From contig JAHDCC010000019.1 of NCBI GenBank assembly GCA_020630065.1, positions 7,139-71,138 on the forward strand: 64,000 nucleotides of DNA. Reading direction: 5' to 3'. The first letter of the stretch is position 1. Each line of letters begins with the position of its first letter. Position numbers and translations under genes: made by a program. This document shows positions 2,326 to 52,625 of the stretch, piece by piece. The notes under the pieces were generated by a model. The model did not search any database and was not told the origin of the DNA. It worked only from the letters and a program-made list of their open reading frames with translations. Source of the stretch: Acidimicrobiales bacterium (GTDB lineage: Bacteria > Actinomycetota > Acidimicrobiia > Acidimicrobiales > SZUA-35).

Positions 2326-2328
2326 TAG

Positions 2329-2808: not shown

Positions 2809-2938
2809 GGAACCTTCTCCGTTCTGGTGGTAGTTGTTTAGACAATGTGCGTCCTCGCCGGATGATGTAGGCGGTGTAGACACCAAGCCCCACAAAGACG
2901 AAGCTGTATCCGACGATTACAAAGTTCCAGCCGTTCAT
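2801..2938 (-). CDS. ccmD: Heme exporter protein CcmD (45 aa). Not present in the supplied ORF track because it is under 60 aa.
   Basis: Manual translation gives MNGWNFVIVGYSFVFVGLGVYTAYIIRRGRTLSKQLPPERRRFLG: a single TM followed by a basic tail, as in CcmD. Its ATG overlaps the ccmC stop (ATGA), its stop overlaps the ccmE start, and it sits in the canonical ccmC-D-E position. Confidence 0.7.
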   Translation of the reverse strand: MNGWNFVIVGYSFVFVGLGVYTAYIIRRGRTLSKQLPPERRRFLG

Positions 2939-3723
2939 GAGATCGCTCCTGTAGTTCCGTCGATGGTTCCTTCTGCTCGACGTTCGACGAGCGCCTCATC
3001 AAGTCGAGCAAGCCGTAGTTGGTGTTCGAGCCACGACACTCTGAACCGATGTATCAGCAACCAGGCAAAGACGACAGTGAACGCTACGAGACCTAAGAAA
3101 AACGAGAAAAGCATCAACCCATCAAGCTTGGTGTCGACCCCAAATGTGGCCTGTTGATGCAAGCCTCTCCACCAGTCCACCGAGTAGTGCACGATAATGA
3201 CGTTTAGGAAACTGACAATCCCAAGCACGGCTGCACGGCGTGACCGAACCCGTGGCTCAAGGTCGAGGCGGCGAACAGCCAAATAGCCTAAATACATCAC
3301 GAACATAACCGTTGTACTGGTGAGGCGAGGGTCCCATTGCCAGTACACACCCCACGTTGGTTTTCCCCAGACAGCGCCGGTGAAAAGGGTAAAGGCACAA
3401 AACAGTACCGCTATTTCGGCGGCTGACCCTGCGACTAGGTCCCAGAACTGTGAACCTTTACGTAGATAAATAATGCTAGCGACCAACGTGATTCCGAAGC
3501 CAAGGTAGGCGGTTAGCACTGACGGAACATGCACGTAAAACAGCCGGACGGCTTCACCCTGGACAACTTCTGGACCGGAATAGTAGAGCCCAAAAAGCAA
3601 CTGCAGCCCGATCGCTACCAGAGCGGCGACGCCTAATACTTTTGTCACTTTCGAACCGGTGCCAGTCGTGGTCAGACCACCGCTGGATAGCTCATGTCCG
3701 ATCTCAAGTTTTGTGTCTGTCAT
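2935..3723 (-). CDS. ccmC: Heme exporter protein CcmC
   Basis: Polytopic membrane protein with the WGVYWQWDPRLTS tryptophan-rich motif. The ATG at 3723 overlaps the ccmB stop (ATGA). The ORF track start at 3804 is probably too early. Confidence 0.85.
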   Translation of the reverse strand: MTDTKLEIGHELSSGGLTTTGTGSKVTKVLGVAALVAIGLQLLFGLYYSGPEVVQGEAVRLFYVHVPSVLTAYLGFGITLVASIIYLRKGSQFWDLVAGSAAEIAVLFCAFTLFTGAVWGKPTWGVYWQWDPRLTSTTVMFVMYLGYLAVRRLDLEPRVRSRRAAVLGIVSFLNVIIVHYSVDWWRGLHQQATFGVDTKLDGLMLFSFFLGLVAFTVVFAWLLIHRFRVSWLEHQLRLARLDEALVERRAEGTIDGTTGAIS

Positions 3724-4409
3724 GATTCCTCCAGCAGCGACCCAAATGCCATCATCCCTACACCAACAAATAACAGAGTAAAGACAGCGATAAGTAGCAA
3801 CCACGGTGTGCCGTCCGAAGTTGGACCGAAGAACGCCGCGTCAGTTGCCAGAGTAGCCCCGAGCAGGACGGGTGTGAGAACCGGGAGCACCAGCAAAGGG
3901 GCGAGGGTGTCACGTACTCTAGAACCAGCAGTTACCGCTGCATACAAGGTACCGGCCGCCGCTATGGCTGCGGTCGTTATAAGAACTGTCGTGACCAACA
4001 ACATAGCGCTACCAAGTGGGGGCCCGAACATTACCCATGCCGCTAGCCCCAAAACCACTTCTAGCAGGAAGATCTGTAACGCGACGGCCGCTGTTTTCCC
4101 TAAGAACACTCCAGCAGGGTCGATACCGGCCATTTGTAACGCATCGAGCTTTCCATCAGCCGCCTCGATAGCGAACGAACGTCCAAGCGCCATGATGGCT
4201 GCAAATAAAACCGCCAACCAGAACAGTCCAGGTGCGACTTGTTCGAGCACCGAACGTTCGGCTCCTACTACCTTTAAGTCTGGAGACAATGCGAACCCGT
4301 AAAGAAGCAGGTTCAGGATACCAAATGGGAGTATCTGGGCCAGCGTGACCCGGGTTGAGAACTCGATTCGGAGGTCCTTTTTTGCGATCAGTACCGCATC
4401 ACGAATCAT
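3720..4409 (-). CDS. ccmB: Heme exporter permease CcmB
   Basis: 229-aa protein with about 6 TM segments, lying between ccmA and ccmC. Start and stop overlap both neighbours. Confidence 0.8.
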   Translation of the reverse strand: MIRDAVLIAKKDLRIEFSTRVTLAQILPFGILNLLLYGFALSPDLKVVGAERSVLEQVAPGLFWLAVLFAAIMALGRSFAIEAADGKLDALQMAGIDPAGVFLGKTAAVALQIFLLEVVLGLAAWVMFGPPLGSAMLLVTTVLITTAAIAAAGTLYAAVTAGSRVRDTLAPLLVLPVLTPVLLGATLATDAAFFGPTSDGTPWLLLIAVFTLLFVGVGMMAFGSLLEES

Positions 4410-5476
4410 GGCGTTTCCTTTGCCGGATCGTCATCGGAAATCGACGTTGTTTTAGTAGCGCCGTCGTCGAGCAGAGACGGTGGGCGTTCGGCCGCTAACA
4501 GGTCGGCGAACAAGTCATCGACCGAATCGTCGGAGTCTGTGGGCTCCTCGACTGGTTCGTTGGTCGCTCCGATCACCCGTTTTGGTTCTTTAGTTTGTTC
4601 GTCCGGGCTGGAACCGTCTTCTGTTGCCGCATCGGGCGAGGGCGACGATGTGGCCGAATTGTCGGTCGTCTCGCTTGTGGTCGAACTATTGACAAACCCT
4701 TTGGTGATCGGTCGACCGGGGAGAGCTGAAACCGCAGGCGTTGACGCTAACGACGGCGGCTCTTCGACGGCGACAGGTTCGGTAGCCTCGACGGAGCTTT
4801 CCGATTGTTCTGAGGCGGGGGTTTGAAGAATTCGGCCGCCAGAAACGTTTACTACTCGGGTGGCTACTGCTCGGGCTCGCCGACGATCGTGAGATGCCAA
4901 AAGTACTGTTGCCCCAAACCCGACAGCCTGTTTAATAAGTGAGTCCACCGCGTCTTTACCAGCCTGGTCGAGCGCAGCATGAGGCTCATCTAGCAGCCAA
5001 ATATGGGGACGTCGCGAAATCATGATCGCCAGCGAGGTCCGCCGCCGCTGACCAGCAGATAGATCTCTCGCTTTTACCGTTCGGAGACGCCCATCAAGCC
5101 CGAGGCGATCCAGAACGGGTTCGATAGTTGATAGGTCTGAACGGTTCGCTTTGGCCCAAAACGTAATATTGTCGATGATGCTCAACTCGTCGTACAAAAA
5201 CGTTTCGTGAGCGAGCAGACCGGCTTGGCGACGGAGCTCTCGTCGTTCATCTCGGTTTGCTAGATCTTTCCCAAGTACAACACCTGATCCGGTGTGGAGC
5301 GGCAACAGGCCAGCGCAAAGCCGGAGCAACGTGCTCTTTCCGGCACCGTTTGGACCCTCGACACAGATAACTTCCCCTTTGGCCACTTCCAAGTCAAGCC
5401 CTGCTAGAGCCGGGAAATCACCAAGAAGCGCTACCGCATCAGAAAGTTCAATAATATGGCCACTGTGAACCACCAC
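4406..5476 (-). CDS. ccmA: Heme exporter ATP-binding protein CcmA with a C-terminal acidic low-complexity extension of about 140 aa
   Basis: Walker A GPNGAGKSTLL, signature LSAGQRRR, Walker B WLLDEP. After about aa 217 comes an S/T/P/D/E-rich tail with no recognisable fold. Confidence 0.85.
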   Translation of the reverse strand: MVVHSGHIIELSDAVALLGDFPALAGLDLEVAKGEVICVEGPNGAGKSTLLRLCAGLLPLHTGSGVVLGKDLANRDERRELRRQAGLLAHETFLYDELSIIDNITFWAKANRSDLSTIEPVLDRLGLDGRLRTVKARDLSAGQRRRTSLAIMISRRPHIWLLDEPHAALDQAGKDAVDSLIKQAVGFGATVLLASHDRRRARAVATRVVNVSGGRILQTPASEQSESSVEATEPVAVEEPPSLASTPAVSALPGRPITKGFVNSSTTSETTDNSATSSPSPDAATEDGSSPDEQTKEPKRVIGATNEPVEEPTDSDDSVDDLFADLLAAERPPSLLDDGATKTTSISDDDPAKETP

Positions 5477-5539: not shown

Positions 5540-6469
5540 GTGTCAAAAACCGTCGCAACACTACTCGGAGGATTAGGTCGTCTGCTGATCTCAGCGGGGC
5601 TAATTACCCTCGCTTTCGCTGTGTTTCAGCTGTGGGGCACCGGGCTTACAGAAAGCCAAGCTCAGGGTTCTCTCAACGACGAACTTAACGAAACATTACA
5701 AGCTAGAGAACTTGCGTATCAGGAAGAAAGCCCGACCGACGCTACCGCACCGGAATTGACCGGTGACGACGTCCCTAAAATCGGCCAACCTTTTGGCCGA
5801 ATCAAGATTCCGAAGATCGGTTTAGAAAAAGCCATCGTCGAAGGGGTATCGCGAGACGATTTGCGGCAGGCTCCCGGCCACTATCCAGACACTCCTCTAC
5901 CCGGCCAAGCTGGTAATGCATCAATTGCCGGTCACCGCACCACCTACGGTCAACCATTTCATGATCTAGACAAGCTGGTACCTGGCGACAAGATAGAGGT
6001 TGAAACGTTACAGGGCTCATTCACCTACGTCGTCGAGGGACACCCGGTTGATGGGCCTGAAGGGGTTACCGAAGTCGGGCACCAGATTGTTCTACCTACC
6101 GACGTTGATGTCATCGCCGACAAAGGCGACAACCGGCTGACACTTACGGCGTGTCATCCCAAGTATTCGGCCCGGGAGCGAATCATTGTTTCGGCGGTGC
6201 TCGAAGCCGAACCAGCTCCCCCCACCCCACGACCAGAACCGGTTTCCATTGACGACGAAGATTCCTTCGAAGATTCGTTGGGCTGGAACTACGACCAAAC
6301 CAAACCGACTGCGTTCTGGGCTCTGATGAGTTTGGGAGTTGTTGCGTTTGCGTACCTTGTCGGCCGCATCTGGCGACGCCGTCTGACGTACGCGTTAGCG
6401 TCACCCGGGTTTGCCGTCACCCTGTTAACGTGTTTTTTCTATCTCGACAAACTGTTACCGGCGGTATGA
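5540..6469 (+). CDS. Class E-type sortase (transpeptidase)
   Basis: N-terminal TM segment, catalytic TLTACHP (TLxTC) motif, conserved IAGHRTTYG His region, and a C-terminal double TM. This architecture is typical of actinobacterial housekeeping sortases. Confidence 0.8.
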   Translation: MSKTVATLLGGLGRLLISAGLITLAFAVFQLWGTGLTESQAQGSLNDELNETLQARELAYQEESPTDATAPELTGDDVPKIGQPFGRIKIPKIGLEKAIVEGVSRDDLRQAPGHYPDTPLPGQAGNASIAGHRTTYGQPFHDLDKLVPGDKIEVETLQGSFTYVVEGHPVDGPEGVTEVGHQIVLPTDVDVIADKGDNRLTLTACHPKYSARERIIVSAVLEAEPAPPTPRPEPVSIDDEDSFEDSLGWNYDQTKPTAFWALMSLGVVAFAYLVGRIWRRRLTYALASPGFAVTLLTCFFYLDKLLPAV

Positions 6470-9559: not shown

Positions 9560-12211
9560 ATGAACGCCGAGACCGATGGCCACAATGCGCAGCCATCATT
9601 TGAGATCGACGGGTTCGAGCCGCTAACTAAACTTGGTGCTGGTGGGTTTGGCGTCGTCTGGAAAGCCCGGCAGAAACGTATCGACCGGCTAGTAGCGATC
9701 AAAGTCAGTAGCACGATTCTAGAGAACAAAGAGGATCAGCTCTTTTTCGACCGAGAGTGTGAATCGTTAGGGCGACTCTCAGGAACCCCGAATATTGTTC
9801 AGGTGTACACCACCGGCCATCTTGACGACGGCCGCCCTTATTTGGTTCTTGAATACATCGACGGCGGCACGTTAACCGCCAGAATAAAGAAGAAACCGCT
9901 GTCCTTCGATGATGTTCGTCAGATAGGTCTCGATCTATGTGATGGACTGACCCACGCCCACAGCTCTGGTGTTCTTCATCGCGATATTAAACCGGACAAT
10001 GTTTTTCTTCGGTCAACCGGCTCGGCGGTTCTAGGCGACTTTGGAATTGCCCAACTTCTGGACACAACAAAGTCTCGTGCTGGGACCGTCATCGGTAGTC
10101 TCCGATATATCGCTCCCGAAGTCCTCAAAGGTGACCGCCCTACGGTTTTGAGTGACCTTTACGGCGTCGGCATTACGCTCTATTCAGCTATGACCCGCAA
10201 ACCACCGTTCACGGGTGAGAGTAATCTCGTCGATCAGGTTATGCAGCGAGTCTTACATAACGAATTGCCTGAACCAGAAACGCTTGGCTACCCGAAGGAG
10301 TTGTCGGGTTTAGTGATGTCGTTGCTCAACAAATCACCCGATCAGCGCCCTCGCTCGGCGAAGGAGGTGGGACAGCGGCTGGAGTCGATTCTTGATACCG
10401 GAAATCGCCGGACCCCTAAACCGACGACGCCTCCTCCACCTCCAACAAAAAAACGCACGCCTCTAGGCGATTCAGCAAAAACCGTTTTGGCAACTACGAA
10501 CATCGCAGACCTCAAGCCAGATGGAACAAAACGGCCTCACATCGCTTCTGAACCGACGCCTTCTACGAAACCTGTTGGCGACGACGGTGAAACTACGGTC
10601 TTTGGCGAAACGTCAGTGTTCGACGAGGAAAAGGGCCGTGATGTTCAACGGTCAGCTGCTAGTCCAAATGGGACGAAACCCTATCCAACACTAGCCAAGA
10701 CCAGTGTTTTAGACGAGGGTTCGGATGACAAGCCAAAGACGCCAGACGCCACGAATATCTTTGTTGAGCAACATCACCGGGATCAACCCGACGTTGGACC
10801 GGGGGGAACCCGTATCTATCCAACTGCGCCGGAGCCGTCGCAGAACAAACCGACGTCCACACCGACGAGTAGGCAAGGTCCTACTACGCCAACGACGTCT
10901 CCGCCGAGTCCTAAACCAACACCAACCCCCAAACCCGCTGTCGCCAATCCGCCCAGTCCTAAACCAACACCAACCCCCAAACCCGCTGTCGCCAATCCGC
11001 CCAGTCCTAAACCAACACCAACCCCGAAACCAGCTGTCACGCCTACAAAACCTAAACAGTCGCCTCCGCCCCCGGTCGTGGCATCTGTCTTGTTCGAAGG
11101 TTCTGATTACAACACACCAGCAAAGTTAGCTCAAGCACTCGCTGGCAACTGGGACAAAACGATCTGGACGTTGTCACAACACCCATCGACGTTCTTTGCC
11201 GAAGAACTCACCAAAGCGGCCTATGCATGGAAACGCCCCCAACTTCCATTGCTGATCGCCCAGTTTCCGTCGGCGGCTCCTCGACGTCGCCATCAGCTAC
11301 TCACCGACCTTCTGGTAGAGCTGGACGTGCAACAGCCACCGATCTATCGGGGATACAAAATCGGAAATGCTCACCGACACGGCGCCGCCGAATTTCCTCC
11401 TGTTGTCGTTGACGAAATCCGCCGCGGCGAAATTCTTGTGAGGTGGCGTCGCAACAACGATATGAATGGCATTGTCGAAGTAGCTAGACAATGGGAGCAG
11501 AGCATTCTCGAATACGACGGCCGAAACCAACCGCTACAGATCGCCGACCAGCACGCAGGCGGGAAACTGTTGGCGGCAGCCGGAAACCCGACTGCGACAT
11601 CGACGATCAAAAAGGCGCTTCTATCTCATTCGGCCCATTCACGAGCCGGCCAACAGCGATGGTGGGCCGAACTCTACTCCGCAGGCTCCGCAGCGGCGCT
11701 CCTTTTAGCCCAAGGAACCTTAGACGTGGCGGCAGCACAAACCGCTGAAGCTGAAGCCGACGCGGCGAAAGATCAGCGCAGGCGAAACATCCGCACCGGT
11801 TCAGCAATCACCGCGGGAATAGCTTCTACCGTGATGAGCGCAGTCGTAGCGAATCGCTGGCACATGGTTGAGGGGCCAACCATCGAACGTTTCACTGGAG
11901 GCTGGATCGTTCTCGCCGTACTACCATTTCTCGTGTTCTGGTTTCTTTTAGCTACCTCAAATAGGCGAGGTGTCGTTGCTGGCGGCTGCCTCGGTAGTAT
12001 CGCCTGGCTTGTATACGCAGCAGCTTTGATTGCAGTCGGTGGGTTTATCGGGATGAACGACCAACTTGCGCCTCAGACGTCGTCGGTCGGGCTCTTTCTG
12101 ACGTTGGCTTCGGTGACGGCCCCACTCATGGCTGTACTAGTGTATCGGCGGCTTACTTCCCGACTGAAATCGCGACGTACTCCCGATATGGTGACGCACC
12201 TTTCCACGTGA
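9560..12211 (+). CDS. Hanks-type Ser/Thr protein kinase with a Pro-rich repeat linker, an unknown domain of about 300 aa, and C-terminal TM helices
   Basis: Glycine loop GAGGFGVVWKA, VAIK lysine, catalytic loop HRDIKPDNVF, DFG, and the APE-like motif YIAPE. The C-terminus has 3-4 hydrophobic helices. Confidence 0.9.
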   Translation: MNAETDGHNAQPSFEIDGFEPLTKLGAGGFGVVWKARQKRIDRLVAIKVSSTILENKEDQLFFDRECESLGRLSGTPNIVQVYTTGHLDDGRPYLVLEYIDGGTLTARIKKKPLSFDDVRQIGLDLCDGLTHAHSSGVLHRDIKPDNVFLRSTGSAVLGDFGIAQLLDTTKSRAGTVIGSLRYIAPEVLKGDRPTVLSDLYGVGITLYSAMTRKPPFTGESNLVDQVMQRVLHNELPEPETLGYPKELSGLVMSLLNKSPDQRPRSAKEVGQRLESILDTGNRRTPKPTTPPPPPTKKRTPLGDSAKTVLATTNIADLKPDGTKRPHIASEPTPSTKPVGDDGETTVFGETSVFDEEKGRDVQRSAASPNGTKPYPTLAKTSVLDEGSDDKPKTPDATNIFVEQHHRDQPDVGPGGTRIYPTAPEPSQNKPTSTPTSRQGPTTPTTSPPSPKPTPTPKPAVANPPSPKPTPTPKPAVANPPSPKPTPTPKPAVTPTKPKQSPPPPVVASVLFEGSDYNTPAKLAQALAGNWDKTIWTLSQHPSTFFAEELTKAAYAWKRPQLPLLIAQFPSAAPRRRHQLLTDLLVELDVQQPPIYRGYKIGNAHRHGAAEFPPVVVDEIRRGEILVRWRRNNDMNGIVEVARQWEQSILEYDGRNQPLQIADQHAGGKLLAAAGNPTATSTIKKALLSHSAHSRAGQQRWWAELYSAGSAAALLLAQGTLDVAAAQTAEAEADAAKDQRRRNIRTGSAITAGIASTVMSAVVANRWHMVEGPTIERFTGGWIVLAVLPFLVFWFLLATSNRRGVVAGGCLGSIAWLVYAAALIAVGGFIGMNDQLAPQTSSVGLFLTLASVTAPLMAVLVYRRLTSRLKSRRTPDMVTHLST
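10901..11044 (+). repeat. 3 x 48-bp in-frame tandem repeat inside the kinase gene (encodes PPSPKPTPTPKPAVAN)
   Basis: Units at 10901-10948 and 10949-10996 are identical except for one base. The third unit diverges at its 3' end. Confidence 0.9.
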
Positions 12212-13211
12212 ACGATTCAAACGAATAGTGCATCAAACCTAAGAAGCCGACAAATCCAAACGAGATCGGCTGGACGAGGGTAACCCCGGCCACAGAATCA
12301 AGCACCGCGTTGAACCAGCCATCGGCCACTCGTTCGAGAAACGCTGCGGCCAGTAGCGAGGCGACCGGTATCGCAAACGCCGCCGGCTGCTTATGTAACC
12401 ACCGAGACAGGGGCCGATGTAACAACGATCGTCTGCCGTGACGAAGCCGATTCGTTTCGTGGTTGATGTAAAAAACGTACGCCGTGACATCGTGGGCCAA
12501 ACGAGGGATCAGTACCGCAAAAAGGGTGTATCCGGAAACGAACATTACCGAACTGCCGATCATCATGGCGCTGTTCGCTACCAGCCAGATTCGACCCGAT
12601 TCGGGGGCCTGAAACCAAAGAACTATTGTCAGTGCAGCCACGATGACGGCTCCCCCAAAAACAATCTGGCGGATTAGGTACAGCTCAGACACGCTCGGGT
12701 TCAGCAGCACCGCAGAGTAATAAAGGGTGCCACAAGCCACCCCCACCCACGACCAAGCGACAAAAATCGGGCCTGAGAGCCGCGCCGCTATGTTGCCGAT
12801 ACCCAGCTGCTGTTTAAGAACGTGGTGGACCGTCCAACCCACAATCAAAACGACCAGCACCCATCGGGGGAACAGATATCCAAGGACCGCTAACGAGGCC
12901 AGAATGCCGACCGCTATACCAAGAATGCGCTGACGATAATGATGAACGTAATCAGGATTCGAAAAAAGAATCATATTGCTCGCCACGATGTGAGGGGTGC
13001 CAAATACCAACGCCAGAAGAAGGTAGCTTTCAGGGAAGGTTCTTAACGTGCTCCGGAGCTGACTATCGAACAAAACCCAGTCGACGGCCACAACAGCAAA
13101 AAGAATAGGAACCGACAGATACAACTGAAGAAGCTTACGCATCGGAACCGAGTGCGGCTCCACATCGGGTTCCCGGGACGTTGTCAGCCCATCTTGGGTA
13201 AGGTCAGACAT
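12153..13211 (-). CDS. Polytopic membrane protein (about 9 TM segments) with histidine-containing TM motifs, function unknown
   Basis: 352-aa hydrophobic protein. His motifs: GTPHIVASN, GWTVHHVLKQQ, AHDVTAYVFYINHE, LMHYSFESF. Its 3' end overlaps the kinase 3' end by 59 bp. Confidence 0.6.
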   Translation of the reverse strand: MSDLTQDGLTTSREPDVEPHSVPMRKLLQLYLSVPILFAVVAVDWVLFDSQLRSTLRTFPESYLLLALVFGTPHIVASNMILFSNPDYVHHYRQRILGIAVGILASLAVLGYLFPRWVLVVLIVGWTVHHVLKQQLGIGNIAARLSGPIFVAWSWVGVACGTLYYSAVLLNPSVSELYLIRQIVFGGAVIVAALTIVLWFQAPESGRIWLVANSAMMIGSSVMFVSGYTLFAVLIPRLAHDVTAYVFYINHETNRLRHGRRSLLHRPLSRWLHKQPAAFAIPVASLLAAAFLERVADGWFNAVLDSVAGVTLVQPISFGFVGFLGLMHYSFESFTWKGASPYREYVAISVGK

Positions 13212-13263
13212 CTACTCAGTGTAGGCGCTAGGCGGCAAGCGAGGTAGACACCCAGCCAGCACC

Positions 13264-14127
13264 TTAGCTAGACATTAACCCAAGTACCTGGGCGTGAAGT
13301 TCTTCGTTAGCTGAGGCCACAACAAATCCGCCGGAACGAGCAGAGCCGCCATCGAGGCCAGTAATGATTCCCCCCGCCGCTTCAATCATCGGTATCAGCG
13401 GTGCTATGTCGTAGGGTTGTAGCTGGTTTTCGATAACGATGTCGATGTCGCCGCTCGCCAACAGCCCATAGTTGTAACAGTCACCGTCATAGCGAACGAG
13501 CCGACATTTTGAAGCTACCGCCGAGAAGCGTTCTTTTTCTTTGTCGGTAACAAACATTGTTGGGTGAGTCGAAGCTAACGACGCTTCAGCTATGTGCGTT
13601 ATTCCGCTGGTTGAGAGGTCCTTTTCCATCAACGGAGACCAGAACCGGGCACGAGAGTTATTCATGGACCCAGAGCTGTCACGAATCGAAACTGCCCAGT
13701 AGCTTTCGTCGAGCGTCGGAATGTGCATAAACCCGGCCATCGGTACTGATTCGACCTCCAGGCCCAACAAGGTTCCCCACATCGGCCGTCCAGTCACGAA
13801 CGCACGCGTTCCGTCGATCGGATCGATAATCCATCGGACATTCTGCGGACCTGACTCGCCGCGCTCCTCCCCGTAGATTCCCACAGTCGGGAACCGTTCA
13901 GTCAAGAATTCACGTAGCAGGTCTTCAACGAGACGATCCGCTTTGGTAACAGGATCAAAATCGGTGGACGCAGTGGAATCGCTGCTAGCCGGGGCCAGCT
14001 TGTTTTGGACTTCCACTGGCCGACGAAACCATTCAAGAGATCGTCGACTACATCGACGCAACACGCCAACTAGTTCAGAGGTCGATCGGTCAACATCGGC
14101 AAGCAGCGCTTGAGTAGAAGAATCCAT
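13264..14127 (-). CDS. Inositol monophosphatase family protein (HisN/SuhB/ImpA-like)
   Basis: Motifs GEERG and WIIDPIDGTRAF, plus the C-terminal YDIAPLIPMIEAAGG, are typical of the IMPase/FBPase superfamily. Confidence 0.75.
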   Translation of the reverse strand: MDSSTQALLADVDRSTSELVGVLRRCSRRSLEWFRRPVEVQNKLAPASSDSTASTDFDPVTKADRLVEDLLREFLTERFPTVGIYGEERGESGPQNVRWIIDPIDGTRAFVTGRPMWGTLLGLEVESVPMAGFMHIPTLDESYWAVSIRDSSGSMNNSRARFWSPLMEKDLSTSGITHIAEASLASTHPTMFVTDKEKERFSAVASKCRLVRYDGDCYNYGLLASGDIDIVIENQLQPYDIAPLIPMIEAAGGIITGLDGGSARSGGFVVASANEELHAQVLGLMSS

Positions 14128-21883: not shown

Positions 21884-22069
21884 AGTTTCTTTTCTCCTTC
21901 GTAAAGAAAACTCAGATATCGCCCAGTCGGCGGATACGTCGTCTGCATTAGGATACAAATTCGAAACATAGGCTCCAATGCTGGATTGGGTATCGCCGAC
22001 CCGCCTACTAGCCGAAGAACCGCCGCGTTGTCCTCATCGACCTGATTGCTCGGTATCGTGGACTCAGAA

Positions 22070-22170
22070 CCAAAGACGGGTGCCTGGCGTAACCAGGCTG
22101 AGATTGAGGTCTTATGCCTCGGGACCGTTCGAACCTGATACGGATAGTACCGTCGAAGGGACCAGCGGTC
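22070..22170 (+). promoter_or_regulatory. TPP (THI-box) riboswitch
   Basis: ACGGGTGCC...GGCTGAGA...ACCGTTCGAACCTGATACGGATAGTACCGTCGAAGGGA matches the conserved CUGAGA and ACCUGAUxxGGAUAAUxCCxGCGxAGGGA cores. It lies about 45 nt upstream of the thiE start. Confidence 0.85.
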
Positions 22171-22214
22171 GTGTCGTCACGCGTAGCCATGGAACTTTCA
22201 GCGGAGGAGACACG

Positions 22215-22886
22215 ATGACGTCATTTCAACCGCCTGCGGACTCTAGGCAAGCGGCCGCACCCAGATTGTATGTGGTTACCCCTGATCGTGGCGTCGACGA
22301 CTTCTTTGAGTCACTATCCACTATTGTGTCCACCGTCGATGTCATCGTACAAGTTCGCCGAAAATCGGGTTCAGAAAAAGATATTGTTGACGCCGCTCAC
22401 AAAATAACGAAGCTCTGCCACGAATTTAGTCGACTTTGTATTATCAACGATCGAGTAGATATCGCAAAAGCCGTAGGCGCTGACGGTGTTCATCTCGGCC
22501 AGACAGATCTGGCGGTACAGCAAGTCCGTGAAGACTTTGACGGCATCATCGGCAGCACCTGCCGGAATGCCACTCAGGCCAAAATCGCTGTGACCAGCGG
22601 AGCCGACTATTTGGGGGTCGGACCGACGTTTCAGTCCTCAACCAAACCAGGGCTACCTCAACCTCTTGGCGTCGACAGGGTCGCCCAGATCGCAGCCGGC
22701 GTCGACATTCCCGTCTACGCCATCGGTGGAATCACTTCAGATACCGCACCATCGTTAATCCAGCATGGGGTCTATGGAGTAGCCGTCGTAGCTGCAGTGT
22801 TTAACCAGCCCGATTCAGCCCAACAACAAGCGCAACGGCTATCCGCTGTGTTGTCTGCTGAACCCTACAGGTCAGGTGCAGAATGA
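22215..22886 (+). CDS. thiE: Thiamine-phosphate synthase
   Basis: ATG at 22215 preceded by GGAGGAGA. Motifs LYVVTPD, INDRVDIAKAVGADGVHLGQ, GPTFQSSTK and AIGGI are typical of ThiE. The ORF-track 5' extension covers the riboswitch. Confidence 0.8.
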   Translation: MTSFQPPADSRQAAAPRLYVVTPDRGVDDFFESLSTIVSTVDVIVQVRRKSGSEKDIVDAAHKITKLCHEFSRLCIINDRVDIAKAVGADGVHLGQTDLAVQQVREDFDGIIGSTCRNATQAKIAVTSGADYLGVGPTFQSSTKPGLPQPLGVDRVAQIAAGVDIPVYAIGGITSDTAPSLIQHGVYGVAVVAAVFNQPDSAQQQAQRLSAVLSAEPYRSGAE

Positions 22887-45447: not shown

Positions 45448-46887
45448 ATGCAGACTTTTCCCGAAACAGCGAACGAGTCCGGTACTCGCCTTTGGCGTAC
45501 CCTTGGTGTCGCTGGGCTGGCTGCATTATTGCTCGGCACAGTCCCCAGTTCAACAGTCAACCTCGCAAACGATTCACGACCTTCGGGATGTAACACGTCT
45601 ACCACTGTCGGTCTTACCCAAACGGCTGACCCGTTCGACCTGGCAGTGCAAGTCTTCCCATGCGCCGAACATGTGGTAGTCGTTCCCGAAACGGCAAGCC
45701 ACGAACGGCTTCAAACAGCAGTCGTGCTGGCGATTTCGCATGAAGCCCCGCTGTTCATTTCGTCGCCCAAAACTCGACCAGATATCTTAGACGTGATCGA
45801 CAGGCTCAACGCCAAGGTCGTGGCCGTTCCGGACGATAACTCCGAACAGGGATCTGAGAAAACCATCAACGCTGCGATTCGTACACCGGCCGCCGACAAA
45901 ACCTACGTCTTGCCGACCAGGCCAACAGCAGATCAGATGGCGCTCATACCCTCGCTGGTCGCTTCCGGCATCAACGTAGTATTAGCAAAGCCTGGTGACG
46001 AAGACCGAGCCAACGAAATCGTGAAATCTCCGACAGTAGTCTTTTCGCCTGATTTCAACCCGACCGACCGGTGGCTTCTCCAACGTGACCAGATATTACC
46101 TGGCGGCGGTTTCCGCCTTTTCCCTGATCGTCGAATCGTGGCCCTCTACGGCCATCCGGGCGCTCCCGTGCTGGGTTTGCTCGGTGAGCAAGGACCACAA
46201 GCAGCTAGCGACCGTGTCTCGAAGATGCTACCTAGCTACGCCGAAGCTGGGGTTCCCACCATTGGTGGCTTTGAGATCATCTCCACCATCGCGACCGCCA
46301 AACCAGGCGATGATGGTAACTACTCCAAGAAGATCGACGTTGAACAGCTACGTCCTTGGATCGAGACCGCAGTCAGCCACGATCTCTACGTCATTCTCGA
46401 CCTCCAACCGGGACGAACCGACTTTTTGACTCAAGCAAAGTTGTATGAGGAATTTCTCAAACTCCCAAATGTTGGGCTTGCCCTCGACCCTGAATGGCGT
46501 CTACTCCCCGATCAGGTCCACCTACGACAGATCGGGGGTGTGGATGCTGCCGAAGTCAACCAAGTTGTGGACTATTTGGCCCAACTGGTCAGAGACAACA
46601 ATCTGCCCCAGAAAGCACTCGTTCTTCATCAATTTCAAACCTCAATGCTGCGAGACCGCTCAACGATCGAAACACCGCCTGAATTAGCGGTTGTCGTCCA
46701 CGTTGATGGCCAAGGCCCTCTGGGTTCGAAATTCGGGACGTGGGATAGTTTGCGGTCCGACCCGATCGGATCTAGTCAACAACTGTGGTGGGGCTGGAAG
46801 AACTTCATAGATGAGGACCTGCCAACGGCGACACCCCAGCAGGTCAACGACGTTACCCCTCTTCCAGTTGTTGTCACGTATCAATAA
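45448..46887 (+). CDS. Secreted protein with N-terminal CWB2-like cell-wall-binding repeats and a C-terminal putative glycoside-hydrolase-like TIM-barrel domain
   Basis: Signal/TM segment GVAGLAALLLGTV. There are two segments resembling cell-wall-binding repeat 2 (VVVVPETAS...AISHEAPLFIS; YVLPT...VASGINVVLA). The C-terminal part (LYVILDLQPG...GLALDPEW) resembles GHL-type domains. The functional call is tentative. Confidence 0.4.
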   Translation: MQTFPETANESGTRLWRTLGVAGLAALLLGTVPSSTVNLANDSRPSGCNTSTTVGLTQTADPFDLAVQVFPCAEHVVVVPETASHERLQTAVVLAISHEAPLFISSPKTRPDILDVIDRLNAKVVAVPDDNSEQGSEKTINAAIRTPAADKTYVLPTRPTADQMALIPSLVASGINVVLAKPGDEDRANEIVKSPTVVFSPDFNPTDRWLLQRDQILPGGGFRLFPDRRIVALYGHPGAPVLGLLGEQGPQAASDRVSKMLPSYAEAGVPTIGGFEIISTIATAKPGDDGNYSKKIDVEQLRPWIETAVSHDLYVILDLQPGRTDFLTQAKLYEEFLKLPNVGLALDPEWRLLPDQVHLRQIGGVDAAEVNQVVDYLAQLVRDNNLPQKALVLHQFQTSMLRDRSTIETPPELAVVVHVDGQGPLGSKFGTWDSLRSDPIGSSQQLWWGWKNFIDEDLPTATPQQVNDVTPLPVVVTYQ

Positions 46888-46889
46888 TC

Positions 46890-47990
46890 TCAGAGGCCGT
46901 CTAGAAGCCGATCGATCAGCAATACATCGACCTGGTCGACCGTTTCAAACTGCCAGCATGGATTGTTGTCTTTGGTGACAAGCGCCGATCGGACTCCGGC
47001 AGAAAAGTCCGACTCTCGTACGTATCGCTTAGACAATACTTCATCTGTTTTCAGCACCTCTACCGGCGTCCGCCCACGACTGAGGGCGAAGTACCGGTCA
47101 GCTACCACCAGGCTGGTTGGCGACACTTGTTTGAACGCTCTAGCTGAAGCGCTGAAGAAGTCGAACGTGTTGGCGAGTTCGTTGAGAGTTTCACCGAATT
47201 CGACGATGTCACCGGCTTGGCCTAGTCGTTCAAACTGGCCAAGATGCCCCTCAATATCCGACCCGTGGTCGCCGATAGAAAGCTCGGCCAGTACATCGTT
47301 GACTATTTCATGGTTATGGGCGGTGTCAGAAGTCCATGGTAGAACAGCTAACTGGTCCCAAAGAGTCAAATGATCGGTGTGGCTAACAAAGGCGGTAGCC
47401 AACCCAAACCTCATAGCGTCTGTTGAATCGATTACCATGCCGGTTACAGCGAATGTCCGCCCAACTCCTTCAGGCAGCTGAGATAGAAAGCTGCTTGAGC
47501 CAACATCGGGGTAAAACCCGATGTTTACTTCGGGCATCGCTATTGCCATGTTTGGGGTCACGATCCGATGCGATCCCGCCATTAATAGACCAAGTCCCCC
47601 ACCCATACAAACTCCGTGAGTAGACACGATGACGGGTTTTGTCCAGCGATGAAGCCGACTGTCAAGAAAGTACTCTTCGTCGAAACATTGGTCGACTTCG
47701 GCCTCATCAGAAGCCAGTAGCGCGTTACGAAGCGATACCACATCTCCTCCGGCGCAGAAACCCCGCTCGCCGACACCGGCGATGCCGAGACCGACGATGC
47801 CATCGTCGTGTTCCCAGCTGTCGAGTTGTCGATTCATCGCCGCGAACATTTGAGTATTCATCGCGTTGAGTTGGGCCGGACGGTTTAGCAAAATTAGGGC
47901 TAGTCGAAGATCTGCGCCAACTTCGCGGGTTCCGAAAATAACATTTGCGGTCGCCTCGGTTTCAGCGCCCGACGTCTCAGATGTGGTCAT
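46890..47990 (-). CDS. Crotonase-fold protein, 3-hydroxyisobutyryl-CoA hydrolase-like (ECH_2). Last gene of the biotin operon.
   Basis: FCAGGDV, GVCMGGGLGL and MPEVNIGFYPDVGSS motifs resemble the HIBCH-type oxyanion hole and catalytic region. The ATG overlaps the stop of the upstream di-iron gene (ATGA). Confidence 0.75.
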   Translation of the reverse strand: MTTSETSGAETEATANVIFGTREVGADLRLALILLNRPAQLNAMNTQMFAAMNRQLDSWEHDDGIVGLGIAGVGERGFCAGGDVVSLRNALLASDEAEVDQCFDEEYFLDSRLHRWTKPVIVSTHGVCMGGGLGLLMAGSHRIVTPNMAIAMPEVNIGFYPDVGSSSFLSQLPEGVGRTFAVTGMVIDSTDAMRFGLATAFVSHTDHLTLWDQLAVLPWTSDTAHNHEIVNDVLAELSIGDHGSDIEGHLGQFERLGQAGDIVEFGETLNELANTFDFFSASARAFKQVSPTSLVVADRYFALSRGRTPVEVLKTDEVLSKRYVRESDFSAGVRSALVTKDNNPCWQFETVDQVDVLLIDRLLDGL

Positions 47991-48655
47991 GTTCTACTGT
48001 CTTGAGTCTCTGCTTGGATCGCTGTCAACCAATTTGAGAAAATCTCTTGCTCAATCTCGCAGACCTTTTCAAGCCACCACTGAGGGTCTTCGAATTGTTG
48101 AGCGACAGTGTCAGCCATCTCGGCAAGATGGTTTTCTTCGTCTACCAAGATGGTGCGAACCGAAACCTCGCTCTTGTGGTCTTTCAAGAGTCGCTCGTAG
48201 TTGCCGTACAATAAATCGGCTTTCACCTCAATGGCATAGGTGACAAGAACGTAGCATGCCGAGCGGAGGTCCTGTCCGACTAACTCAAGTTCGGTCTTTA
48301 CCAGTCTGGACACCGCCGTATCCAACTTATGTAGATATTGTCGGGTAGCCGTCGGTGCCACCAGGTACGCGGGTTCGTAAGTGGGGCAAGCCACAGACGG
48401 CAGCTTTCGGATCTGTCTTTTAAGGTACCAGGCGTGCCGAGACTCTTCGACGGTATGCCGCAGTATCTGTTCGGTAACCAACTCGGGGTGTTGGGCCGCC
48501 GATATTTTTCTCGCACCAGAGTTCTCTAGAAACGAAAGCGAATTCAACCACCGACCATGAAGCGAGTCATCGGCAACGATAACGGAGATTAGTTCAACGA
48601 GTTGCCCCAGCTGATCTACTTCACTGTGGTTGACGTTTTCGTTTCTGGTGTTCAC
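47987..48655 (-). CDS. Ferritin-like di-iron carboxylate protein of unknown function, embedded in the biotin operon
   Basis: 222-aa protein. Candidate ligands are E44 (FLENSG), E71-x2-H74 (VEESRH), E143 (AIEVKA) and E173-x2-H176 (DEENH), at spacings of 27 and 30 residues. The GTG start overlaps the bioA stop (GTGA). Confidence 0.6.
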   Translation of the reverse strand: MNTRNENVNHSEVDQLGQLVELISVIVADDSLHGRWLNSLSFLENSGARKISAAQHPELVTEQILRHTVEESRHAWYLKRQIRKLPSVACPTYEPAYLVAPTATRQYLHKLDTAVSRLVKTELELVGQDLRSACYVLVTYAIEVKADLLYGNYERLLKDHKSEVSVRTILVDEENHLAEMADTVAQQFEDPQWWLEKVCEIEQEIFSNWLTAIQAETQDSRT

Positions 48656-49959
48656 CGTGCCGCCTCATCTAGTACTCGTTTGATTGCATTGACTAAAAGA
48701 TCGATGTCATCGTTACTTATCACGTAGGGAGGCATGATATAAATCAACCTTCCGAAAGGCCGGATCCAAACCCCGGAATCGACGAATATTCGCTGGGCGT
48801 CTTCGAGGTCCACCGCCTCGTTCGTTTCCACAACTCCTACCGCTCCAAGAACCCGAACATCAAAAACTTCTGGGTGGTTGACCAGGCCCGAAAGCCCGTC
48901 GTGGAGCTTCTGTTCGATACGTTTCACCTCGGTTGGCCAGTCGCTGGCCACCAAAAGGTCGATACTCGCCGATGCGACAGCACACGCTAACGGGTTCGCC
49001 ATAAACGTCGGTCCGTGCATAAACGTTGGGTTCGACCCAGCGTCGATGACGTCTACTACCTTGTCGGTGGTCAGTGTCGCCGCCAGCGTCATCATTCCCC
49101 CAGTGAGTGCTTTACCGACACACATAATGTCGGGGGTTACCTCTGCATGTTCACAGGCGAACAACTTCCCCGTTCGCCCGAACCCGGTCGCTATTTCATC
49201 TACGATCAGCAAAAGGCCTTCTCGGTCGCAGATCGAACGGATTCCACGGAGATACTCGGGATGGTAGAACCGCATCCCGCCGGTTCCCTGCAAGATCGGC
49301 TCACAGATGACGCCCGCTAATTGGCTACGATGCTCAGCGACGTTTTGTTCAATGTCGTCCAACGCTGAGACGTCCCAGGGCTCGTGGTATTCGACGGATG
49401 GACGTTCAACAAATACCTGTTTTTTTAACACCGACGAAAACAGATGATGCATGCCGTTGTCTGGGTCGCTAACCGACATGCAAGCAAACGGGTCTCCGTG
49501 ATAACCACCCCGAGGTGTTAGAAATAGCGAGCGTTCGGTTTCGCCTTTGGCATGCCAGAATTGAATCGCCATTTTTAATGCGACTTCAACCGAAACCGAA
49601 CCAGAATCGGCAAAAAACACGTATTGGAGATCGTCGGGGGTCAGTTCAACTAGCTGCGCTCCGAGCTTACTTGCTGGTTCGTGGGCGAACCCGCCAAACA
49701 TGACGTGCGACATTTTGCTGAGCTGTTGAGCGGCGGCTGCGTTTAGCTGCGGATGGTTGTAGCCATGTATGGCCGTCCACCATGATGACATTCCGTCGAC
49801 GAGCTCGGTTTCTTGCTCATCGGCCAAGGTGATGCGGACACCGTCAGCACGCTTGACCGGGTAGGTCGGGAGCGCATCTCGCATCGACGTGTAGGGATGC
49901 CAAAGATGGTTACGATCGAAGTTGTGCCAGTCTTGGGTGTTTTCGAAGTTTATGGGCAT
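48652..49959 (-). CDS. bioA: Adenosylmethionine-8-amino-7-oxononanoate aminotransferase
   Basis: NHLWHPYTSM, VDGMSSWWTAIHGYNHPQLN and DEIATGFGRTGKLFA motifs. I preferred the ATG at 49959. The ORF-track TTG is at 49971. It overlaps the bioD 3' end by about 50 nt. Confidence 0.9.
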   Translation of the reverse strand: MPINFENTQDWHNFDRNHLWHPYTSMRDALPTYPVKRADGVRITLADEQETELVDGMSSWWTAIHGYNHPQLNAAAAQQLSKMSHVMFGGFAHEPASKLGAQLVELTPDDLQYVFFADSGSVSVEVALKMAIQFWHAKGETERSLFLTPRGGYHGDPFACMSVSDPDNGMHHLFSSVLKKQVFVERPSVEYHEPWDVSALDDIEQNVAEHRSQLAGVICEPILQGTGGMRFYHPEYLRGIRSICDREGLLLIVDEIATGFGRTGKLFACEHAEVTPDIMCVGKALTGGMMTLAATLTTDKVVDVIDAGSNPTFMHGPTFMANPLACAVASASIDLLVASDWPTEVKRIEQKLHDGLSGLVNHPEVFDVRVLGAVGVVETNEAVDLEDAQRIFVDSGVWIRPFGRLIYIMPPYVISNDDIDLLVNAIKRVLDEAAR

Positions 49960-50533
49960 GTGTTTGTACAAAGTCGCACGTTACAGACGACACCTGTTCG
50001 ATGTCGGCCAATGGTTCTATTCCGCTGTATTCCAGTATGACAGTCCTGCTATCTCTATTGGCTTTACCGTTGAAAACGACACCAATTGATTCGATACCAC
50101 GGCTCTTGAGTAGTTCGATAGACAGCAACGTGTGGTTAATACTGCCCAGGTAATAGTTGGCTACCAAGACCACGGGAAATCCTAGACGCGCAACGAGATC
50201 TACTGTCAGTGTCTGCTGGTTGATCGGGACCATCAAACCACCTGCGAGTTCGACCAGTAGATTGTCGTCTGTCGGCGGCGTCAACGCTTCCAGCGTGATA
50301 CCGACGGCGTCTCGTTCCGCCGCCGCGTGTGGCGACATCGCTTCGGTGAGGCGATACCGTTCGTCATGAACGGTGCAGTCTGATGTTAGAGACGATACGA
50401 CGCTGGTGTCTGTTTGATGTAAGTCTCCGGCCTGTATCGGTTTCCAATAGTCCAAACCAAAAGCTTCACAAAACATGGCTGAGACAACGGTCTTGCCTAC
50501 GTCGGTGCCGATACCGGCAATGATCACGTTCAT
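49910..50533 (-). CDS. bioD: Dethiobiotin synthetase
   Basis: MNVIIAGIGTDVGKTVVS P-loop, and ELAGGLMVP. The ATG at 50533 overlaps the bioF stop. The ORF-track 5' extension (to 50698) lies inside bioF and is rejected. Confidence 0.85.
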   Translation of the reverse strand: MNVIIAGIGTDVGKTVVSAMFCEAFGLDYWKPIQAGDLHQTDTSVVSSLTSDCTVHDERYRLTEAMSPHAAAERDAVGITLEALTPPTDDNLLVELAGGLMVPINQQTLTVDLVARLGFPVVLVANYYLGSINHTLLSIELLKSRGIESIGVVFNGKANRDSRTVILEYSGIEPLADIEQVSSVTCDFVQTHAHKLRKHPRLAQLRS

Positions 50534-51651
50534 GGGTTTGTTCTCACTAGTGTTTCGATGAGGAGATCGATTTCTTGAGTCGTGTTGTACGAGTGGATAC
50601 AGATTCGAATTCGTTCGCTCCCGGCAGCAACCGTCGGTGGCAGAATCGCTTTGACCGTAATGCCCACACCGGACAGCGTATTTTCGATGTCGCAGCAACG
50701 TTCGGTCTCACCGACGACGAGGCCTTGTATCGGCGAACTACTCGGCAGCAGTCGGCCAGAACCCGCCGATAGCTGGGCGTTTGCGGTCTGACGGAAGTAC
50801 TCGATATTGCGGCGCAGACCTTGCCGTTGGGAGTCGGCTTCAACCATTCGTTCATGTTGATGAGCGATTGTCTGTACTGAAGAGACCGGTGGGGCTGTCG
50901 AGTAGATAAATGGGCGGCAGAAATTTATCAGATAGTTTCGCAGCCAGGAGCCTCCGGCAACGACCGCACCGTGGTAGCCCACAGCTTTGCCGAAGGTGTA
51001 CACACAAGCGGCCACCCGGCTTTGGAGGTTCAAACTAGCTACGAGACCTTCGCCCCGGTCCCCTATGACGCCGAGGCTGTGGGCTTCGTCGACGATTACT
51101 GCTGCGTCGAAACGTTCACACAGGTTGACAATCTCAACCAGCGGCGCGTGGTCGCCGTCCATCGAATAGGTGCCTTCGACGACAACAATGACGTTCCCGT
51201 CGGGGCGTTTAGCGCGAACTCGTTGCAGTTTTTCGGACAAGTTATCGAGGTTGTTGTGTCGAAAGTGGAAACGACGCGCCGTGCTCAGTCTGGCTCCATC
51301 GATCAGACTGGCGTGAGCTAACTCGTCAAGAATTAACGAGTCTGTTCGCCCGGCGATACAAGCGAGCAAGCCGAGGTTGGCGTCGTATCCAGACCCGAAG
51401 AGAAGCCCTGCTTCAAACCCATGAAATCGGGCGATCTGGTTCTCCACCTGTTCGGCTATCGCCGAGTTTCCTGAAAGAAGTCTAGAACCCGTCGACCCCG
51501 CTGGACGCACCGCAACGGTTTGAGCGGAAAGCCCAAGATAGTTGTTTGACCAGAAATCGATCTGAGTATCCGTTGACGGCAACGTTCGAAAGTTCGCCGC
51601 CCGCTTTCGCTTGTTTAGTTTCTGTTGGCTGGCGGACTCTAAACTTTTCAC
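50530..51651 (-). CDS. bioF: 8-amino-7-oxononanoate synthase
   Basis: PLP-dependent alpha-oxoamine synthase. Motifs SGYDANLG, DEAHSLGV and TFGKAVG (PLP lysine). Confidence 0.9.
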   Translation of the reverse strand: MKSLESASQQKLNKRKRAANFRTLPSTDTQIDFWSNNYLGLSAQTVAVRPAGSTGSRLLSGNSAIAEQVENQIARFHGFEAGLLFGSGYDANLGLLACIAGRTDSLILDELAHASLIDGARLSTARRFHFRHNNLDNLSEKLQRVRAKRPDGNVIVVVEGTYSMDGDHAPLVEIVNLCERFDAAVIVDEAHSLGVIGDRGEGLVASLNLQSRVAACVYTFGKAVGYHGAVVAGGSWLRNYLINFCRPFIYSTAPPVSSVQTIAHQHERMVEADSQRQGLRRNIEYFRQTANAQLSAGSGRLLPSSSPIQGLVVGETERCCDIENTLSGVGITVKAILPPTVAAGSERIRICIHSYNTTQEIDLLIETLVRTNP

Positions 51652-51656
51652 CGCCG

Positions 51657-52625
51657 CTACGAAATTTGGACCGAAACCGGCTGAGGTTCCTTCGCAGTGA
51701 GCCCTAAGAGTTCGAATAGTTGAGCGTCGTCGGCCACACTCGGATTCGGTGTCGTCAAAAGCTTTTCACCAGCGAAGATCGAATTGGCACCAGCCAGAAA
51801 ACACAGAGCTTGTTCGGAAGCAGAAAGTTCTGTCCGCCCGGCTGAAAGACGCACCACCGTCGTGGGCATCAAGATTCTGGCCGTCGCCACCATACGCAAC
51901 ATCTCCCATGCGGTGACACGTTTCTGGTCGGCAAGCGGAGTTCCTTCAACTGGAACTAGCGCATTGATGGGAACGGATTCAGGTGGGGTTGATAGGTTAG
52001 CGAGGGTTGTTAGCAGTCCAATTCGGTCGTCATCGGTTTCTCCCATCCCGATAATTCCACCGCTGCATACCGTCATACCCGCATTTCGAACATTGTCGAG
52101 CGTATCTAAACGGTCGTCGTAGTCACGGGTCGTGATGATCTGATCATAGTATTCGGCCGAAGTATCTAGATTGTGGTTGTACGCATACAGACCTGCGTCA
52201 CGCAGTTTCTGGGCTTGGGAATCCGTCAACATTCCCAGTGTGCAACAGACTTCTAAGCCTAAACCATTGACCGCTGTCACCATTTCCAGCACACGGTCGA
52301 AGTCTTTGTTGTCTTTGACTTCTCGCCAGGCGGCACCCATACACAGCCTTGAAGAACCCGAATCTTTAGCCTGCTGAGCCAGCTCTAGTACCTGCTCAAC
52401 CGGCATTAGTTTATGGACATCTACGTCGGTCTGGTATCGAGCGGCTTGAGGACAATAGGCGCAGTCTTCAGGGCAGGCGCCGGTCTTGATCGACACAAGA
52501 GTTGAGACCTGAACCTCGTTGTGAACGTTCGAATTCCGATGGACTGTTGCCGCTTCGAAGACCAACTCGAGCAACGGACGAGTGTAAATCTCTCGGACAG
52601 CTTCCAACGAAATCTTCTGATCCAT
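51657..52625 (-). CDS. bioB: Biotin synthase (radical SAM)
   Basis: [10 protein letters not shown] radical-SAM cluster motif, YNHNLDTS, and an overall 322-aa BioB pattern. Confidence 0.95.

Follow-up and report, generated by a model that had tools for sequence, protein, structure and literature searches.

BioE, a non-heme diiron oxygenase of the ferritin-like type described in December 2025, initiates the synthesis of biotin in Elizabethkingia and Chryseobacterium (Xu et al., PNAS 2025; PMC12704756), and the same function was shown in Chlamydia psittaci (Zhang et al., Adv Sci 2025; PMC12915131). Its route constitutes the fourth pimeloyl pathway (PMC12704756, PMC12915131). The enzyme of Elizabethkingia meningoseptica (EmBioE) contains about 2 Fe, needs O2, and cuts C14-C18 chains carried on coenzyme A (CoA) or on an acyl carrier protein (ACP) at the C7-C8 bond, yielding pimeloyl-CoA/ACP and a Cn-7 acid (PMC12704756); EmBioE and the C. 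psittaci enzyme, CpBioE, are not alike in carrier preference or in oligomeric state (PMC12915131). Here we describe an open reading frame (ORF) of 222 amino acids (aa), located within a bio gene array on a 64-kb stretch of DNA (contig JAHDCC010000019.1; the whole stretch is referred to as the window), which, judging from its sequence, very probably encodes a ferritin-like, non-heme diiron oxygenase of the BioE type that supplies the pimeloyl segment to the pathway of bioB, bioF, bioD and bioA.

In EmBioE, the six metal ligands E26, E53, H56, E125, E155 and H158 are each essential by alanine substitution (PMC12704756), and in CpBioE the alanine substitution of each of E41, E68, H71, E140, E170 and H173 abolishes function (PMC12915131). 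Residues of the acyl channel and of the phosphopantetheine contact were likewise found to be required by mutagenesis (PMC12704756, PMC12915131), the latter corresponding to F24, R31, K32 and R87 in EmBioE (PMC12704756). BioE proteins were recognized by >40% identity and >85% coverage to EmBioE (BBD33_16475) (PMC12704756), and the published range comprises Bacteroidota families, Burkholderiaceae and Chlamydiaceae (PMC12915131). In E. meningoseptica, the genes are arranged as bioEFD + bioBA; this species and Chryseobacterium belong to the family Weeksellaceae (PMC12704756).

Other enzymes share part of these traits. The aldehyde-deformylating oxygenase of cyanobacteria, cADO (PDB 2OC5, 4KVQ, 5UXI), was singled out by the BioE authors as the known ferritin-like diiron oxygenase (FDO) with the greatest similarity to BioE, and their model of BioE is closest to it (PMC12704756). 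cADO is soluble, has about 230 aa and is a ferritin-like diiron protein in which two E...ExxH half-sites occur; as BioE, it holds a fatty-acyl-derived substrate in a hydrophobic channel and cleaves a C-C bond with O2 and an external reductant; however, BioE cuts C7-C8 of a saturated chain, whereas cADO deformylates an aldehyde at C1. BioI (CYP107H1) from Bacillus subtilis, discussed by the same authors as a functional analogue (PMC12704756), also carries out an O2-dependent C7-C8 cleavage of long-chain acyl-ACP to pimeloyl-ACP, but, being a heme-thiolate cytochrome P450, it is unrelated to BioE in fold and cofactor, the resemblance being one of convergence and not of homology. Finally, MiaE, acyl-ACP desaturase and the ribonucleotide reductase subunit R2 display the E...ExxH...E...ExxH pattern on a four-helix core, although no sequence relationship to the window protein is detectable, their substrates and chemistry are different, and desaturases and R2 are much larger.

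Results

Metal ligands and substrate-contact residues of the window protein

An original prediction, made on the bare DNA letters and their translations, had placed in this ORF a small diiron oxygenase of biotin-precursor chemistry, coupled to bioA. The ORF list and the translation agree with its coordinates and length and place the ORF on the minus strand (Table 1), and the ligands that it proposed, namely E44 (FLENSGARK), E71/H74 (VEESRHAW), E143 (YAIEVKAD) and E173/H176 (VDEENHLAEM), are read in the translation together with the repeat spacings of 27 and 30 residues. The ORF evolves under purifying selection, with a ratio of nonsynonymous to synonymous substitution rates (dN/dS) of about 0.12.

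The six ligands were invariant in 31 of 31 homologs sharing 35-98% identity (alignment A1), as well as in all 16 sequences of a second alignment that includes Weeksellaceae and Chlamydia (alignment A2). When this Glu-rich sequence was shuffled 20,000 times, a loose version of the motif (E-x20-35-ExxH-x50-90-E-x20-35-ExxH) arose in 593 cases (3%), so that the motif by itself is only suggestive. The ligand spacing of 27/3/69/30/3 (E-x26-E-x2-H-x68-E-x29-E-x2-H) is the same in the window protein, EmBioE and CpBioE; the linker between half-sites, of 69 residues in the window protein, is longer than that of about 55 residues in the cADO sequence aligned.

Further, the published functional residues could be located one by one. 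With an offset of +18, all 10 EmBioE residues were matched (the six ligands plus F24, R31, K32 and R87), the window protein differing from EmBioE by an 18-residue N-terminal extension; with an offset of +3, 16 of 17 CpBioE residues were matched, including 10 of the 11 of the acyl channel (W33, L37, L40, I48, L105, V135, I139, L146, Y147 and Y150), and the sole mismatch was L205, replaced by N208 in the window protein. The conservation of both the channel and the phosphopantetheine-contact residues speaks for substrates of the same class. The window protein thus resembles EmBioE and CpBioE in its six ligands, their spacing, its channel and contact residues and its location in a bio gene cluster, and these traits, together with the homology described below, match the predicted diiron oxygenase to the BioE family.

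Table 1. Position of the bioE homolog, its half-sites and the adjacent genes in the window.
Feature	Position	Strand	Characteristics
bioE homolog, putative ferritin-like diiron oxygenase	47987..48655	minus	222 aa, GTG start, TGA stop
First half-site: E44 (48526-48524), E71 (48445-48443), H74 (48436-48434)	48434..48526	minus	Corresponds to EmBioE E26/E53/H56
Second half-site: E143 (48229-48227), E173 (48139-48137), H176 (48130-48128)	48128..48229	minus	Corresponds to EmBioE E125/E155/H158
bioA, adenosylmethionine-8-amino-7-oxononanoate transaminase	48652..49971 (longest ORF)	minus	Pfam Aminotran_3; NCBIfam NF005940
bioD, dethiobiotin synthase	49910..50698 (longest ORF)	minus	Pfam AAA_26; TIGR00347, 100 bits vs cut-off 83
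bioF, 8-amino-7-oxononanoate synthase	50530..51651	minus	Pfam Aminotran_1_2; consumer of the pimeloyl thioester
bioB, biotin synthase, first gene of the bio array	51657..52625	minus	Radical_SAM + BATS; TIGR00433, 398 bits vs cut-off 225
ECH_2 / 3-hydroxyisobutyryl-CoA-hydrolase-like	46890..47990	minus	366 aa; Pfam ECH_2, E = 1.9e-86, full-length; ATGA overlap with the bioE stop

Homologs, family size and clade

A first search of 5.8 billion proteins retrieved 33 homologs, including sequences from Flavipsychrobacter, a Parachlamydiaceae bacterium and Candidatus Chlamydia sanziniae, the latter (P0033) with 35-40% identity to the window protein. A scan of GTDB species genomes detected at least 594 encoding loci, from which the best 80 were analysed; these were 44-52% identical to the window protein, and almost all corresponded to Bacteroidota. 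Full-length homology to the BioE proteins of Weeksellaceae and Chlamydia was clear. In Empedobacter falsenii (L060), a member of Weeksellaceae, 46-47% of residues were identical along some 204 aa (tblastn E = 2e-57), and the protein, of 205 aa, carries E26/E53/H56 at the published positions and is encoded in the bioEFD + bioBA layout. In addition, the window protein falls in the size class of about 205-225 aa of EmBioE, CpBioE and the Chryseobacterium indologenes protein, CiBioE.

The family is large. A profile search, in which P0001, a relative 97% identical to the window protein, scored 320 bits against the family profile, gathered 4,710 clusters (90% identity) at E <= 1e-10, and an exhaustive search of 50%-identity representatives gathered 724 clusters at E <= 1e-3. 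Nearly all members have 190-260 aa and are therefore stand-alone single-domain proteins. The sole long member, P0294 (1,911 aa; BioE domain at 17-189, HHH motif, Peptidase_C25), was considered as a fusion and rejected, since it probably reflects a gene-calling read-through.

The cluster labels found in the sources, JGI and UniRef among them, were 'hypothetical', 'rubrerythrin' and 'bacterioferritin (cytochrome b1)'; PF02915 was assigned to 1 of 120 relatives listed, and Pfam domains were almost absent from the profile matches. Taken at face value, the two latter labels, which JGI and UniRef attach to some homologs, would make of the window protein a bacterioferritin or a rubrerythrin-like protein with a general function in iron storage or oxidative stress, encoded beside bioA by chance. 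This explanation is effectively refuted, as Pfam and NCBIfam scans of the ORF gave no ferritin-like or rubrerythrin match even at E <= 10, the linkage to the bio operon recurs across phyla, and orthologs make pimeloyl thioesters according to both genetic and biochemical evidence (PMC12704756, PMC12915131).

Within this family, the window protein groups with P0001-P0006 and is separate from the sequences of Bacteroidota, Chlamydiota and Proteobacteria. Its clade, distinct from those of the characterised BioE proteins, is sparsely sampled, being integrated by a handful of metagenomic contigs. The host of the window, an uncultured bacterium, is probably actinobacterial, and its lineage would then lie outside the published range of BioE.

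Organization of the biotin operon

In the window, bioE is the final bio gene of an operon with the order bioB-F-D-A-E, distinct from the bioEFD + bioBA arrangement of Elizabethkingia. The coupling to bioA that had been predicted is real: the GTG start of bioE overlaps the TGA stop of an upstream ORF (GTGA, 4-bp overlap), and this ORF scored 652 bits on the NCBIfam bioA equivalog (NF005940), above the cut-off of 625. A GAGG sequence lies about 9-12 nt upstream of the GTG. At the other end, the TGA stop of bioE overlaps the ATG of the ECH_2 gene (ATGA), a member of the crotonase superfamily, bioE being thus translationally coupled on both sides; this second overlap does not figure in the original prediction. 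Regarding gene starts, a later one for bioA (410 aa) is found in gene calls on near-identical contigs, and for bioD the likely start would yield a product of 207 aa (about 49910-50533), as called in L081. The bioF candidate scored 323.8 bits on TIGR00858, under the cut-off of 426, bioF being still the top NCBIfam model, and by its sequence it may represent a divergent BioF. A promoter and terminator scan of the bio operon gave no signal above chance.

No genes of the BioC, BioH, BioG, BioW, BioI or BioZ type were found within the 64-kb window. Neither was a regulator of the GntR/MocR type (BioL), the regulators found in the window being of the LysR, Crp and MarR types. In this absence the window locus differs from the BioE loci that have BioL, the cognate MocR-type repressor, beside bioE, an association that is frequent but not universal. 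Chlamydia also lacks BioL; since the Chlamydia BioE is functional (PMC12915131), BioL is not a defining element of the BioE family.

Downstream and convergent to the bio operon, with 2 bp between stops, there is a 479-aa ORF (window 45448-46887, plus strand) that matches no Pfam or NCBIfam family and is syntenic in L081 and L083.

Genomic context of bioE in other taxa

Context was counted in 80 loci from other species (the best 80 of at least 594). Late bio gene(s) occurred within 10 kb of bioE in 45 of them, a bioA-like gene was placed immediately upstream and on the same strand in 39, and the full bioB, bioF, bioD and bioA set was present in 17. Among other clades, the arrangement was bioBFDA-E in L086 and bioE-BFDA in L087, and bioBFDA-E was also observed in L065, a gammaproteobacterial metagenome-assembled genome (Candidatus Poriferihabitaceae). 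In every member of the window clade, bioA lies immediately upstream of bioE. The original prediction had counted an absence of bio linkage in other taxa as evidence against itself; as these loci indicate, the linkage recurs across phyla.

Some of these loci displayed features of their own. L071 (CAYMRD010000017.1), labelled 'uncultured Bifidobacteriaceae bacterium', carries bioBFDA-E with identities to the window bio proteins similar to those of Bacteroidota loci, and may be a mis-binned contig. In L084, bioA is present at 3182-4635 (72% identity, tblastn) in two pieces with a discontinuity of about 100 nt, a region where the gene caller put a 170-aa ORF on the opposite strand; the split gene is either a frameshifted pseudogene or the result of an assembly error. 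In L086, a second bioA-like gene (12043-13290; 58% identity) is located about 4 kb downstream of the bioBFDA-E array and is followed by the start of a second BioE-like gene (50% identity over 78 aa) that ends at the contig edge, which looks like a duplicated bioA-bioE pair.

Profile searches and predicted structure

The original prediction could match the protein to no named family by eye, and neither Pfam nor NCBIfam holds a model for the BioE family, which is why the protein looked unnamed. Compared with PDB sequences, neither the protein by itself nor the family profile returned anything significant; the marginal profile matches were to bacterioferritin and to TM1526, a ferritin-like diiron-carboxylate protein (E about 0.2). 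The missing ferritin-like profile match lowers the case for membership in the superfamily at the sequence level, and not that for an FDO-like way of working; the BioE family is an unmodelled, isolated branch.

An AlphaFold2 model built with the 31-sequence alignment was all-helical, with seven helices, a predicted local distance difference test score (pLDDT) of 92.4 and a predicted template-modelling score (pTM) of 0.89. The ligands are distributed over four of these helices, with E44 on 30-54, E71/H74 on 62-82, E143 on 127-159 and E173/H176 on 167-187; these two E / ExxH helix pairs represent a ferritin-like arrangement, and the modelled fold is compatible with a ferritin-like diiron site. 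The structural likeness to ADO, MiaE and desaturases that had been proposed is only weakly borne out, since TM-scores were 0.5-0.6 and heme-oxygenase-like diiron oxidases (HDOs) reached similar values.

This last point raises a question of classification, and not of biological role, namely whether the protein belongs to the HDOs, with the seven-helix fold of AetD, UndA and TenA-like proteins. By E-value and by TM-score normalized to the query (TMq), the top Foldseek matches were AetD (TMq 0.59) and TenA (0.52-0.55), above ADO-like proteins. However, these are weak matches throughout (E about 0.07-0.5; root-mean-square deviation, rmsd, about 6 Å), and ADO-like proteins and MiaE align at lower rmsd (4.6-4.8 Å) with comparable TM-scores normalized to the target (TMt, 0.56-0.60): the ADO-like 5ux1_D gave TMt 0.60 and rmsd 4.6 Å, and MiaE (2itb), itself a weak match, TMt 0.56 and rmsd 4.8 Å. 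Moreover, four Glu and two His in E...ExxH half-sites constitute the ferritin-like pattern, whereas HDOs use three His and three carboxylates; the window ligands are four Glu and two His, forming two E...ExxH half-sites on four helices. The marginal PDB sequence matches were solely to the bacterioferritin and the ferritin-like diiron-carboxylate protein mentioned above, and the published model of BioE is closest to cADO (PMC12704756). An HDO assignment thus appears very improbable, and a ferritin-like diiron protein is the preferred classification. In a local hhalign alignment with cADO, which was not significant, E143 fell on the Glu of cADO IIEC, and E173/H176 on the Glu/His of EEYSH; the cADO sequence used scored 511 bits to PDB 5uxi.

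The coupled ECH_2 gene

The gene downstream of bioE resembles HIBCH (3-hydroxyisobutyryl-CoA hydrolase) in being a full-length ECH_2 match that scored 280.6 bits on NF004127, just above the cut-off of 274. In the 5.8 billion proteins searched, its close relatives (99, 58 and 48% identity) were only the bioE-adjacent genes of L081, L083 and L084; the next matches were gammaproteobacterial HIBCH-like proteins with <=38% identity, so that it differs from named HIBCH-like proteins both in this distance and in being located in a biotin operon and not in a valine-catabolism context. Its sequence, AMPEVNIGFYPDVG, keeps a Glu and an Asp eight residues apart, which would correspond to the HIBCH catalytic pair.

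The distribution of this gene is narrow. L085 also carries it, and so probably does L088, where a 32-aa start that overlaps the bioE stop resembles the N-terminus of the window ECH_2. Conversely, it was absent from all 80 other-taxon loci (the best 80 of at least 594), from L086 and L087 and, within the window clade itself, from the two members L089 and L090: in the former, bioE runs straight into a convergent homolog of the 479-aa ORF (45448-46887), which abuts it directly, and in the latter a different gene lies downstream. ECH_2 as an obligatory partner of BioE is ruled out, since L089 and L090 lack it and yet keep bioA-bioE; it is a clade-restricted, non-obligatory companion of bioE. Such a HIBCH-like/ECH_2 companion gene appears in neither BioE paper (PMC12704756, PMC12915131), and its coupling to bioE sets the window locus apart from the characterised ones.

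This gene bears on a further explanation, in which the window protein would be a BioE-family paralog of diverged chemistry that acts together with ECH_2 on another acyl-CoA, of different chain length or hydroxylated, or towards a non-pimeloyl product, a modified biotin route being also conceivable. The window clade is indeed distinct from all characterised BioE clades, the clade-specific ECH_2 gene is translationally coupled and has its close relatives only beside bioE, and no BioL regulator is found nearby. Nevertheless, 10 of 11 CpBioE acyl-channel and 4 of 4 EmBioE phosphopantetheine-contact residues are kept, the complete late-pathway operon around the gene needs a pimeloyl donor, and bioA-bioE persists in L089 and L090 in spite of lacking ECH_2. 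We consider a diverged paralog unlikely, and a BioE that supplies the pimeloyl segment the better explanation of the locus. As a more speculative proposal, which we regard as rather doubtful, BioE and ECH_2 could form a version of the pimeloyl pathway with two components, ECH_2 acting as the dedicated acyl-CoA hydrolase/hydratase partner of BioE, in a phylum from which BioE has not been reported. Possible roles of ECH_2 include the hydrolysis of an off-pathway or partly oxidised acyl-CoA intermediate, CoA recycling, or curbing the known toxicity of BioE where BioL is lacking.

Other features of the window

The Rfam scan gave a single match, a thiamine pyrophosphate (TPP) riboswitch (22066-22179, plus strand; RF00059, 65.4 bits), situated at the 5' end of a TMP-TENI ORF (21978-22886), the first of a thiamine cluster that continues with a DAO/ThiO-like protein, ThiG, a second TMP-TENI and a ThiD-like kinase. 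Since the riboswitch falls inside the 5' end of this ORF, the ATG at 21978 is probably too far upstream. In addition, components for the maturation of cytochrome c by System I (CcmF/NrfE-like, CcmE, CcmC-like Cytochrom_C_asm, CcmB and an ABC ATPase) are encoded beside a class E sortase (343-5476, minus strand; 5540-6469, plus strand), a combination not expected in an actinobacterium-like genome. Nonetheless, this sortase, together with an L,D-transpeptidase, a Ser/Thr kinase and an FHA-ABC transporter also encoded in the window, suggests that the host belongs to Actinomycetota.

Discussion

Our results place the window protein, very probably, among the BioE-type oxygenases that provide the pimeloyl segment of biotin. 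From EmBioE and CpBioE we infer, by homology, its iron binding, substrate and products, and the reaction would proceed as follows. Two Fe would be bound by E44, E71, H74, E143, E173 and H176 inside the four-helix core; a C14-C18 acyl-CoA and/or acyl-ACP would enter the hydrophobic channel formed by W36, L40, L43, I51, L108, V138, I142, L149, Y150 and Y153, its phosphopantetheine arm being contacted by F42, R49, K50 and R105. Given O2 and a reductant from outside, the enzyme would cleave the C7-C8 bond in several oxidation steps (10 electrons net), the predicted products being pimeloyl-CoA/ACP and a free C7-C11 acid, and BioF would then condense the pimeloyl thioester with alanine.

Several observations weigh against this assignment. 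With regard to homology, the proposed function depends on an identity of about 46% with a protein orthologous to the characterised enzymes, EmBioE and CpBioE were compared indirectly, through family orthologs and published residue numbers, and the clade of the window protein is separate from every characterised BioE. As for the locus, the visible DNA amounts to 64 kb, another pimelate route being possible elsewhere in the genome, and the BioE pathway as published does not accommodate the coupled ECH_2 gene. The structural support, in turn, consists of the placement of the ligands on helices. Foldseek gave no match in the PDB at E <= 1e-3, with best TM-scores of 0.5-0.6, and cADO-like proteins (0.54-0.60) did not stand above AetD, TenA and UndA (0.5-0.6), nor was the hhalign comparison of the family profile with cADO significant (probability 1.6%, E = 0.03).

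The BioE family has been known since December 2025, and the window protein is a further member of it, in a new clade and probably from a phylum new for BioE. The ECH_2 companion constitutes the sole element of the locus that could add biology to the published pathway. BioE was re-identified here independently, starting from raw sequence, and the family turns out to be much larger and wider in distribution than reported. Since it has no Pfam or NCBIfam model and its genes are mislabelled, the pimelate step will be missed in pathway reconstruction, and predictions of biotin prototrophy will wrongly score carriers as lacking a pimelate route. The practical value of these results is that a widespread and mis-annotated family is now recognisable in the reconstruction of biotin pathways.

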